Part shown: in pieces, positions 334 through 2,797 of the stretch
Layout: every line of letters starts with the position of its first letter
Numbering within the stretch: position 1 is the first letter of the stretch
Origin: an uncultured archaeon
GTDB taxonomy: Archaea > Asgardarchaeota > Thorarchaeia > Thorarchaeales > Thorarchaeaceae
NCBI GenBank assembly: GCA_964648855.1
Contig: CAZYLT010000023.1
Span: forward strand, 1-31,003
Direction: 5' to 3'
Length of the DNA: 31,003 nt
Notes under the pieces: generated by a model
What the model saw: only the letters and a program-made list of their open reading frames with translations
Database searches by the model: none
What the model was told of the DNA's origin: nothing
Program-made: the position numbers and the translations under genes

Positions 334-1254
334 ATGAGTGACCCAGTACCTGTGGCAATGGCACAGGGAAGTTCGTGCTGGGGTTGTTTCCAGAGTCTGG
401 TTGACATCCATCTCAATTTAGCAGATGTCCTGCCCCTACTGGATATTAAATTCTGGGCAGGAGTCGTGGATTACAAACTTCAAGACTTGGAGAATTATTC
501 CGATAAATCGATCAAAATTGGATTATATGAGGGAATGGCAAGAACAGAAGAAGATGTTCATTTGCTGAAGGTTATGCGCGACAAGTGTGAGACCTTGATT
601 GCCTTTGGAACATGTTCATGTTTTGGAGGTATTCCTGGGCTGGCCAACTTCTATGATATAGATGATGCATTAGAGGTGAAGTTCAGAAACAATAAGACGG
701 TTTCTGGAGGTAAAGTGCCCACAGAGAATCTACCTGCAATTGAAGCAACAGTGAGACCTAACAAAGACATTGTGGATTTTGACATCTACTTGCCTGGCTG
801 TCCACCCACCTCAAAACTCATTCTTACTGCGTTGAATGCTTTGCTTAATGGAGAGGACATAGAATTGCCTCCCCATACTGTTTGTCACTACTGCGACCGC
901 GAGAAAGAAGAAACCCCTATTCCAGAGGTCCTGCGTCCATTTGAAGGGAAAGCTGACCCAGATAGGTGCCTTCTCGAGCAAGGATATATTTGCCTCGGGT
1001 CTGCAACATGGGGCCTCTGTGAGGGACAGTGTGTGAACAAAGGTTCAACATGTCGAGGCTGTTTTGGTCCGCCTCCACCAATCATGTCTGACCAAGGCGC
1101 TGCGTCAATGTCAATGCTTGGAACGTACGCCCCCATCGACCCTGAAAAATTGCTTGAAAAAGTGAAGGACCCACTTGGTACTTTCTATAGATTCACGTAT
1201 GCAACTAGTCATCTTGGTAGAATCAGGCAAAAACGCGAGGAGGCGAAGAGATAA
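334..1254 (+). CDS. mvhG: F420-non-reducing (group 3c) hydrogenase small subunit MvhG/VhuG
   Basis: SSCWGC, AFGTCSCFGGI, LPGCPP, CHYC, RCLLEQGYICLG and CRGCFGP Fe-S motifs; gaggagg RBS upstream; stop overlaps the start of the large subunit. Confidence 0.95.
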   Translation: MSDPVPVAMAQGSSCWGCFQSLVDIHLNLADVLPLLDIKFWAGVVDYKLQDLENYSDKSIKIGLYEGMARTEEDVHLLKVMRDKCETLIAFGTCSCFGGIPGLANFYDIDDALEVKFRNNKTVSGGKVPTENLPAIEATVRPNKDIVDFDIYLPGCPPTSKLILTALNALLNGEDIELPPHTVCHYCDREKEETPIPEVLRPFEGKADPDRCLLEQGYICLGSATWGLCEGQCVNKGSTCRGCFGPPPPIMSDQGAASMSMLGTYAPIDPEKLLEKVKDPLGTFYRFTYATSHLGRIRQKREEAKR

Positions 1255-2570
1255 TGGCAGAAGAAAAGACGATTAGAATCGATCCCGTAACAAGACTTGA
1301 GGGACATGGTGCATTAACAATCAAAATGGGCAAAGATGGAAAAGTCAAAGACGTTCAATTCAATGTAGGAAGCACGAGATTTTTCGAGAAGTTTCTTGAG
1401 GGTAGACCAATGGAGGAAGCCATTAGGATTGCTCCAAGAATCTGTGGCATCTGTCCGGTCCCTCACCATTTAGCCTCGACAAAGGCGGTGGAAGCAGCTT
1501 GGGATGTTACACCTCCAGAACCAGCAATCAAACTGCGCCGGCTGATGATGGAGGCAAAGCAGCTTTCCTCCCACGCAATTCATTTCTACGCTCTTGCCGC
1601 ACCGGATTTTGTTTTTGGACCTTTTGCCGATCCTGCGGTTAGAAATGTGGCGGCGGTACTCAAGCATCTTCCTGATGTGGCTGTTCAGGCGATTGAATTG
1701 ATGGAGTTTGGTCAGGAGATGTGCAGGACGGTGGGTGCAAAGGCTATACATCCAACAACTGCAATTCCGGGTGGAATGTTATCCCCTCTTAGCGAAGAAG
1801 AACGTGACAAATGGCTAGGAGAAGTGCCTAATCTTCTGGAAAACATAAACAAGACCGTCGACCTTGCCAAAAAGGTAGTCACTGACTATGTAGATGTTGT
1901 GACAAAGGTTGCTGTTACTCCAACCTACTATCTTGGATTGACCAATGATGGAGTCCTGGATATCTACGAAGGCAATGTTCGAGTAATGGACCCCGACGGG
2001 AAGATAGTAGCTGATTTTGAACCAAGTGAGTACACAACATACTATGGTGAACATATTCCTAACCATTCTTACGCTACTCATACATACTTCAAACCTGCTG
2101 GGTATCCCGATGGAATCTGGCGTGCCAATACCCTGGCACGATGCAACGTAGTTGACAAGATGGCTACTCCACTGGCTCAAGAAGCCCTTGAAGAGATGCG
2201 TGAACTGATTGGACGGCCATCACACCACACTTTCGCCTTTCATTACGCTCGAGTTGTCGAAATGGTTCAGGCTGCGGAATGGATTAAGACATTGCTTGAA
2301 GATCCAGATATTGTCAGTACTGATATCAAGTTATCAGACGTCGAGCCAAAGGCAGGTGATGGCGTTGGCATAGTTGAGGCACCACGAGGAACTCTTCTGC
2401 ACAATTACGAATGCGACGAAGATGGGATAGTTTTGAAAGCAAATCTCATCGTGGCAACCAACAACAATATTGCGGGGATTGAGAAATCATTGATGGTGGC
2501 CGCAAAGCAGATCTTTGAAGACAAAGCCCATGAGGAACTCGAATTACCTGACCCACTCGTTAAAACATAA
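1254..2570 (+). CDS. vhuA: Group 3c hydrogenase large subunit, split (VhuA) type, lacking the C-terminal L2 motif
   Basis: IDPVTRLEGH N-terminus, L1 motif RICGICPVPH, VEAPRGTLLH and ANLIVAT. Ends at TAA 2568-2570 without DPCxxCxxH. Confidence 0.93.
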   Translation: MAEEKTIRIDPVTRLEGHGALTIKMGKDGKVKDVQFNVGSTRFFEKFLEGRPMEEAIRIAPRICGICPVPHHLASTKAVEAAWDVTPPEPAIKLRRLMMEAKQLSSHAIHFYALAAPDFVFGPFADPAVRNVAAVLKHLPDVAVQAIELMEFGQEMCRTVGAKAIHPTTAIPGGMLSPLSEEERDKWLGEVPNLLENINKTVDLAKKVVTDYVDVVTKVAVTPTYYLGLTNDGVLDIYEGNVRVMDPDGKIVADFEPSEYTTYYGEHIPNHSYATHTYFKPAGYPDGIWRANTLARCNVVDKMATPLAQEALEEMRELIGRPSHHTFAFHYARVVEMVQAAEWIKTLLEDPDIVSTDIKLSDVEPKAGDGVGIVEAPRGTLLHNYECDEDGIVLKANLIVATNNNIAGIEKSLMVAAKQIFEDKAHEELELPDPLVKT

Positions 2571-2579
2571 ACAACGGAG

Positions 2580-2741
2580 TTGAAACAAATAACAGACGAT
2601 ATACCCGAAGGACTGCTCAATCTCTTGGAGATGGTGGTCCGCTGCTACGACTGCTGACTATCCTGCGGCGCTCATCTTACCATCGTGGACGATGAGGGTC
2701 GCGAGATAGCACGGAAGGAGATTGTAACCAGCGGTGGATGA
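2580..2741 (+). CDS. vhuU: VhuU selenoprotein: small hydrogenase subunit carrying the L2 Ni-ligand motif; Sec at TGA 2655-2657 (absent from the ORF track)
   Basis: Hand translation: LKQITDDIPEGLLNLLEMVVRCYDC-U-LSCGAH-LTIVDDEGREIARKEIVTSGG-stop. This matches the EGLLNxxEMxxRAYDPCLSCATH end of MvhA, with TGA at the Ni-ligating Cys and conservation continuing past it. Start uncertain (TTG 2580 or ATA 2589 behind GGAG 2576-2579). Confidence 0.92.
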
Positions 2742-2797
2742 AGGTTCGGCGTAAAGTTGTGAGCCGGGCCGGACAGACCCTGCAAGGGTCAAGCTGG
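2728..2797 (+). promoter_or_regulatory. Eukaryote-like SECIS element 1
   Basis: AUGA (2738-2741, overlapping the vhuU stop), then A. An 8-bp helix GGUUCGGC 2743-2750 / GCCGGGCC 2763-2770 closes the loop GUAAAGUUGUGA, which contains AAA. G-GA-C follows at 2771-2774. Possible basal pairing CCAGC 2728-2732 / GCUGG 2793-2797, with an inserted hairpin GACCCU-GCA-AGGGUC at 2776-2790. Confidence 0.72.

Follow-up and report, generated by a model that had tools for sequence, protein, structure and literature searches.

We asked why the nickel-binding motif of a short selenoprotein gene in Thorarchaeote DNA reads R-C-Y-D-C-U-L-S-C-G-A-H, with one cysteine directly after the Arg and another directly before the selenocysteine (Sec), at the position of the DPCxxCxxH proline, one of the least variable residues in [NiFe] hydrogenases. 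The gene, vhuU, lies in the window, by which we mean the whole stretch of 31,003 nucleotides that was analysed. The sequence-only reading had located the motif correctly, with exact coordinates and codons, and had proposed that both cysteines are either reversions from Sec in a VhuU that once held several, or extra thiols that modify or protect the NiFe site. The features that bear on the question, all on the forward strand, are the following.

334–1254 (+): vhuG, hydrogenase small subunit (Pfam PF01058, E 1.3e-19)
1254–2570 (+): vhuA, large subunit of 438 amino acids without the C-terminal nickel-ligand motif (Pfam PF00374, 100.5 bits)
2580–2741 (+): vhuU, selenoprotein gene of 53 codons with a TTG start (ORF reading, with conservation on both sides of the TGA)
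2640–2675 (+): L2/L5 motif R-C-Y-D-C-U-L-S-C-G-A-H, codons 21–32 of vhuU
2643–2645 (+): Cys22 (TGC), the column after Arg, a variable small-residue column according to homologue surveys and tree
2652–2654 (+): Cys25 (TGC), adjoining Sec and replacing the consensus Pro, the Asgard clade signature according to homologue surveys and tree
2655–2657 (+): Sec26 (in-frame TGA), in the place of the terminal nickel-ligand Cys of DPCxxCxxH (alignment; tRNA-Sec in the genome)
2676–2738 (+): tail of 21 residues after His32 (pLDDT below 50 in the structural model)
2738–2773 (+): Loki-type SECIS with AUGA, a 9-position stem, a 12-nt A-rich loop and closing GA (pattern match)

The vhuG-vhuA-vhuU locus of this Thorarchaeote encodes a group-3c [NiFeSe] hydrogenase with a split large subunit, which vhuU completes. 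The closest solved relative of VhuA is the M. maripaludis VhuA (9sfi_g, E 8.7e-132), and near-identical records carry the name 'Ni/Fe hydrogenase subunit alpha, Ca. Thorarchaeota'. Its N-terminal metal motif L1, RICGICPVPHH, contains the nickel ligands Cys64 and Cys67, which are invariant in 33 Asgard VhuA and also in 79 aligned sequences. The vhuU gene lies in the frame of vhuA, which is followed by one TAA, three more codons and then the TTG start, and vhuU codons 21–32 read CGC TGC TAC GAC TGC TGA CTA TCC TGC GGC GCT CAT. DPCXXCXXH is given as the C-terminal consensus of [NiFe]-hydrogenase large subunits (PMC5299533). Compared with it, the window VhuU has the D, the ligand (as Sec), the xxC and the xxH, with Cys for Pro, and all four canonical metal ligands are intact (VhuA Cys64 and Cys67, VhuU Sec26 and Cys29). 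Cleavage of the large subunit after the His of this motif is the rule (PMC5299533), so the maturation endopeptidase would be expected to cut off the tail after His32. A search with the NCBIfam model for VhuU (NF041786) gave 40.5 bits (E 8.7e-10), below the curated cut-off of 70; in a control search the cut-off was passed in 1 of 14 reference genomes and the model gave a signal in Methanocaldococcus, and it appears to be tuned to methanogen VhuU.

A read-through fusion of vhuA and vhuU (TAA read as Gly and TGA as Cys, 495 residues) was modelled using AlphaFold2 with a 79-row alignment. The model had a mean pLDDT of 90.7 and a pTM of 0.90, with a pLDDT of 90 over the motif block (fusion residues 461–470) and disorder in the tail after the His. 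The top Foldseek match was 5odc_F, the MvhA of the Hdr-Mvh complex, with a target-length-normalised TM score of 0.94, and by this resemblance VhuA and VhuU together make up an ordinary large subunit of group 3c, divided between two genes.

The SECIS and the end of vhuU overlap, the stop codon (2739–2741) being the UGA within the SECIS AUGA; published VhuU genes have a Loki-type SECIS of the same architecture, with the AUGA holding the stop codon (PMC4989117). A second vhuGAU locus in the same genome (contig C6:96891-100043, L002) carries a motif identical to that of the window and the same SECIS layout, and tRNA-Sec is encoded on contig C6 as well. Only the two vhuU SECIS passed when the whole genome was scanned with the SECIS pattern, and an Rfam search of the window returned no family at the gathering threshold. 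In Lokiarchaeota VhuD contains Sec, whereas none of the eight MvhD-family matches (PF02662) in this genome has an in-frame TGA.

The gene family itself is already published: the window vhuU belongs with the Asgard VhuU bearing lokiSECIS (Mariotti et al. 2016, PMC4989117; Huang et al. 2024, PMC11227280), which likewise has about 50 codons and a single Sec at the nickel-ligand position, downstream of vhuA. Reviews give the archaeal VhuU motif as UxxC only (PMC13188914), and the literature searched held no discussion of the neighbouring Cys (D-C-U), the motif being listed only as UxxC. What is new here is the D-C-U signature with its single origin and its exceptions, the rejection of a Sec relic, the distinction between the two columns, and the lack of a partner Cys. 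The Methanococcus VhuA/VhuU of the Hdr-Vhu-Fwd complex is also split (PDB 9sfi/9t1s, PMC13518236), with a small Sec peptide that supplies the last two metal ligands, but that peptide reads R-A-Y-D-P-U where the window reads R-C-Y-D-C-U. Sec occupies the same ligand position in bacterial fused group-3c and periplasmic [NiFeSe] enzymes (Desulfobacterota; structures from D. vulgaris Hildenborough and Dm. baculatum), and a U-L-S-C core is common to many bacterial Sec-type enzymes and the window VhuU. The bacterial enzymes are fused, use a bacterial SECIS and, in all those searched, have Pro before Sec, whereas the window enzyme is split, uses a Loki-type SECIS and has Cys.

To what extent D-C-U is shared among Asgard archaea was examined in 400 Asgard genomes using the pattern R-x-[YF]-D-x-TGA-x-x-C-x-x-H, which gave 247 matches in 210 genomes, compared with 2 matches for the reversed control pattern; the motif is therefore not a product of chance. 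Residues were counted in the 150 listed of the 247 matches, of which 7 are chance and 143 real. Among those listed, 139 of the 143 real matches (~97%) read D-C-U, the exceptions being R-C-Y-D-P-U in two genomes of one Loki-type genus, R-S-Y-D-N-U in one Asgard genome, and R-C-F-D-F-U in another, at a contig end. In a set of 40 relatives, the split Sec-type copies read D-C-U without exception (26/26, 25 of them from the Thor family), and the fused Cys-type paralogues from the same Asgard genomes as split copies read D-P-C. The column after Arg is much looser: four families, Thor and Loki among them, have Cys, and the remaining copies have Ala, Ser, Asn or Ile. Among 54 fetched loci, the Cys codon before Sec is TGC in 42 and TGT in 8, and the Cys codon after Arg is TGC in 27 and TGT in 18; in the phylum-wide matches from the AT-rich Loki family, TGT predominates before Sec. 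With both codons in use at both columns, it is the amino acid that is under selection.

Outside the Asgard archaea the two columns part company. The M. maripaludis VhuU (PDB 9sfi_M), the one entry from which the methanogen state at these columns is taken, reads R-A-Y-D-P-(U)-Y-S-C-A-A-H, which bears out the earlier claim that Cys stands in place of a canonical Pro. A Cys-type motif is present in 79 of the best 150 cluster representatives of VhuA homologues. Its first Cys is preceded by Pro in 77 of the 79, by Leu in 2 and by Cys in none, and its Arg is followed by Ala in 40, Cys in 13 and Ser in 12, with others in the remainder. The replacement of Ala by Cys, which the sequence-only reading had also singled out, is thus present but less unusual than it had supposed. 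An open pattern run over 301 Desulfobacterota genomes gave 53 matches, about 50 of them real and all D-P-U, four being R-C-Y-D-P-U, and Pro precedes Sec in every one of a set of 72 fused bacterial Sec-type loci. The fused Sec-type large subunit of Desulfocarbo indianensis (G402, L116) also has R-C-Y-D-P-U, and Cys after Arg therefore occurs together with the canonical Pro outside archaea. A wider search with E-x3-R-x-[YF]-D-P-TGA-x-x-C-x-x-H, at one genome per species, found at least 120 stretches; those listed come nearly all from Desulfobacterota and Desulfurobacteriaceae, and the one 'Promethearchaeota' contig among them is one of the two Asgard D-P-U genomes. By these sequence comparisons, Cys22 is a variant common in the family, at a tolerant column of small residues, and Cys25 is an Asgard clade signature, specific in everything searched.

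Two cluster representatives from short Logan contigs (P0124 and P0141) are VhuA-like fused proteins that end in R-C-F-G-W and R-C-F-N-W just before the stop, where D-P/C-U would be expected. These endings may be a further variant of the motif or may come from an assembly error. Searching metagenomes with a pattern for such endings returned no match, and the clusters that the two proteins represent are unnamed.

To place the change in time, a maximum-likelihood tree was built from 58 VhuA sequences (IQ-TREE, LG+G4), comprising 50 Asgard split and 8 bacterial fused Sec-type proteins; row L194 and two Aquificota rows were left out as a long-branch artefact. The Asgard VhuA clade was separated at 100/100 support. 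Four changes are needed in the column before Sec, where Pro became Cys on the Asgard stem and Cys later gave way once each to Pro, Asn and Phe, compared with at least seven in the column after Arg. The genus that changed from Cys to Pro is nested among D-C-U lineages (support 99/90, then 98/94). The window and C6 copies fall in two different old Thor paralogue clades, and both read R-C-Y-D-C-U. As reconstructed on this tree, Pro was replaced by Cys a single time, on the branch leading to the Asgard VhuA/VhuU clade, and the Cys was lost in some later lineages.

The proposal that both extra cysteines are former Sec residues of a multi-Sec VhuU can be set aside, and we consider it hardly credible. 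Multi-Sec proteins do exist in Loki, in the form of HdrA, VhuD and PrxL, while VhuU itself is described with a single Sec (PMC4989117). Cys codons lie one base step from TGA, as had been pointed out for the two TGC codons, but this holds for any Cys codon and is uninformative. With TGA forced after Arg, the scan of 400 Asgard genomes gave one match, a chance one in stop-riddled non-coding sequence; with TGA forced before Sec it again gave one, out of frame inside an unrelated open gene. No real VhuU in the 400 genomes has TGA at the column of codon 22 or codon 25, and the outgroups carry Ala and Pro there, not Sec. A relic of Sec was accordingly rejected for these genomes. The expected alternation between Cys and Sec is also missing, since the first column switches between Cys and Ala, Ser, Asn or Ile and the second between Cys and Pro, Asn or Phe, but neither to Sec; what homologues do conserve is Cys, strongly before Sec and weakly after Arg.

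The reading that we favour, at a probability of about 0.55 as a whole, starts from what the comparisons show: Pro gave way to Cys25 on the Asgard stem, selection on the amino acid has since maintained Cys25, Cys22 is ordinary, and neither residue was formerly Sec. The conservation of Cys25 across the phylum at the amino-acid level fits a function, judging from the alignments: a two-base change was fixed once and kept in ~97% of copies across classes and paralogues, both Cys codons are used, and the residue adjoins the selenol. The part of this reading that concerns the thiol is more tentative. By analogy, Cys25 may supply the active site with a second-shell thiol that acts as a guardian or resolving residue for Sec26 when it is off nickel, a role that we hold possible rather than probable. 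Placed in the second shell next to Sec26, the thiol could form a vicinal Cys25-Sec26 selenenylsulfide whenever Sec is off the metal, be it in a free peptide that still awaits its metal or following oxidative attack, and this bond would shield Sec from over-oxidation. A point against it is simple backbone geometry, by which a residue tends to face away from the one that follows it, so that Cys25 could reach the selenium only if Sec were to leave nickel. With VhuA Cys64/Cys67 and VhuU Sec26/Cys29 intact, the catalytic reaction should be no different from that of other [NiFeSe] enzymes. There is precedent for selenium–sulfur chemistry in a Cys-Sec selenylsulfide proposed for HdrA in the M. maripaludis Hdr-Vhu complex (PMC13518236).

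A partner Cys for Cys25 was sought in VhuA, and among 33 aligned Asgard sequences none is invariant besides the nickel ligands Cys64 and Cys67. Cys157 was ruled out as a disulfide partner, being present in just 25 of the 33, and six of the eight copies that lack it are D-C-U. The absence of a conserved partner excludes a fixed disulfide to VhuA and leaves Sec as the only constant neighbour. Against a thiol role stand the return to Pro in one Loki-type genus and the Asn and Phe found in one genome each, which make it plain that Cys25 is not indispensable, and the fact that methanogens and bacteria run [NiFeSe] enzymes with Pro. We also examined whether VhuA co-varies with the column. Eighteen VhuA columns have a residue that is shared by at least 90% of Asgard sequences and found in at most 10% of Pro-type homologues (residues 41, 70, 83, 102, 103, 105, 150, 271, 275, 276, 284, 359, 363, 403, 411, 422, 431 and 432), examples being Pro70 inside the L1 motif, Met150 for Arg, Thr275 for Lys and Pro432 for Tyr/Phe. 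None of the 18 changes with the reversion from Cys to Pro; the Pro revertants keep them all, so that these residues are clade signatures and nothing in them points to a co-adapted pocket.

A vicinal Cys-Sec pair occurs in mammalian thioredoxin reductase, where the redox centre Gly-Cys-Sec-Gly lies on the C-terminal, flexible, substrate-facing tail of a flavoenzyme. In both proteins the adjacent Cys and Sec could, by analogy only, close an eight-membered selenenylsulfide ring. The pair in the window differs in being internal (D-C-U-L) to a hydrogenase peptide, with Sec serving as a metal ligand, rather than forming a C-terminal Gly-Cys-Sec-Gly on a flavoprotein. A bolder extension of the analogy, which we think rather improbable, is that the Cys-Sec pair forms a built-in redox switch, in which Sec would leave nickel upon oxidation and form a selenenylsulfide with Cys25, parking the enzyme in a protected and quickly reactivated state. 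If true, this would bring thioredoxin-reductase chemistry into the active site of a hydrogenase, and would offer a possible reason why Asgard archaea that depend on hydrogen can withstand pulses of oxygen.

The main rival to the guardian role, and one to which we give about the same odds, is that Cys25 is a structurally tolerated marker of the clade, fixed early by chance or epistasis in place of Pro and held by packing within a tight motif, its thiol having no chemical role. All motif columns are nearly invariant, so conservation alone is no proof of a special function; Pro, Asn and Phe occur at the Cys25 column in real Asgard genes, and Leu at the Pro column in 2 of 79 Cys-type homologues. 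The change from Pro to Cys moreover came along with the 18 other clade-signature changes, Pro70 in L1 among them, and the revertant genus retains all the other clade-specific VhuA residues. Chance fixation and passive retention sit less easily with the two base changes that Pro to Cys requires, or with the persistence of Cys in ~97% of copies, through deeply separated classes and both old Thor paralogues, while the neighbouring tolerant column after Arg changed at least seven times. The sole exception found in more than one genome is, furthermore, a return to Pro and not a step to a one-base neighbour such as Ser or Arg.

Selection might instead act at the level of translation, on the codon before UGA, for example by avoiding a slow peptidyl-Pro donor in the P site during Sec insertion by the eukaryote-like Asgard machinery. 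The change from Pro to Cys does coincide with the clade whose SECIS is of the Loki type and lies in the 3'-UTR, and the context after UGA is biased as well, CTA being the commonest Leu codon there (30/54). A requirement for anything other than Pro would nevertheless allow many residues, and ~97% are Cys; TGC and TGT are both used before UGA; other archaeal selenoprotein motifs (UxxC, CxxU, UxxK, UHxP) follow no rule of a Cys codon before UGA; the genus with D-P-U has the same gene layout; and a copy in the Thor genome G013 in which Sec itself has become Cys still keeps the preceding Cys (D-C-C). The near-exclusive use of Cys, the synonymous codons and the D-C-C copy weaken the case for recoding to the point that we find it very unlikely. 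Fainter still is the prospect that Cys25 alters metal coordination, as a fifth ligand or a replacement ligand in some Ni-Fe state. It adjoins a nickel ligand and is conserved together with the four standard ligands, but those four are intact, Pro revertants exist, and the fusion model is MvhA-like with a pLDDT of 90 at residues 461–470 and no sign of a rearranged site. To our knowledge, no [NiFe] enzyme uses the Cys25 position as a ligand.

The replacement of Pro by Cys25 is of interest beyond this locus. In current models, both Asgard physiology and the syntrophy behind eukaryote origins revolve around hydrogen metabolism of the Hdr-Vhu type, and here a whole archaeal phylum has replaced the DPCxxCxxH proline with a thiol beside the catalytic selenol. 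[NiFeSe] enzymes are of interest as H2-producing catalysts, and Cys25 offers a natural and easily mutated handle on second-shell tuning of their oxygen sensitivity, maturation and proton handling. If Cys25 does nothing, D-C-U would still mark Asgard-type VhuU cleanly at the sequence level, and this is a gene that gene callers miss.

Several further observations were made on individual vhuU loci. In each of the 54 Asgard loci fetched, Leu follows the Sec UGA; its codon is CTA in 30, as it is in the window (2655–2663). UGA-CUA is a read-through-favouring context known in eukaryotes, and the bias may reflect a context effect on recoding. The D-C-C copy is a vhuU-like ORF near locus positions 1810-1960 of L036 (G013:C63:32500-35500), which reads R-C-Y-D-C-C-L-S-C-S-A-F, with Phe for the cleavage-site His; the VhuA tree places it inside a Thor paralogue clade, and it may be a Cys-type split VhuU or a decaying copy. 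Two other loci, L007 (G008:C28:6753-9902) and L012 (G012:C34:76245-79394), contain a full R-C-Y-D-C-U vhuU with no vhuA directly upstream and look like orphan vhuU genes; the former is preceded by an MvhD-like gene and by no more than the first part of vhuG, as if the 3' part of vhuG and vhuA had been deleted.
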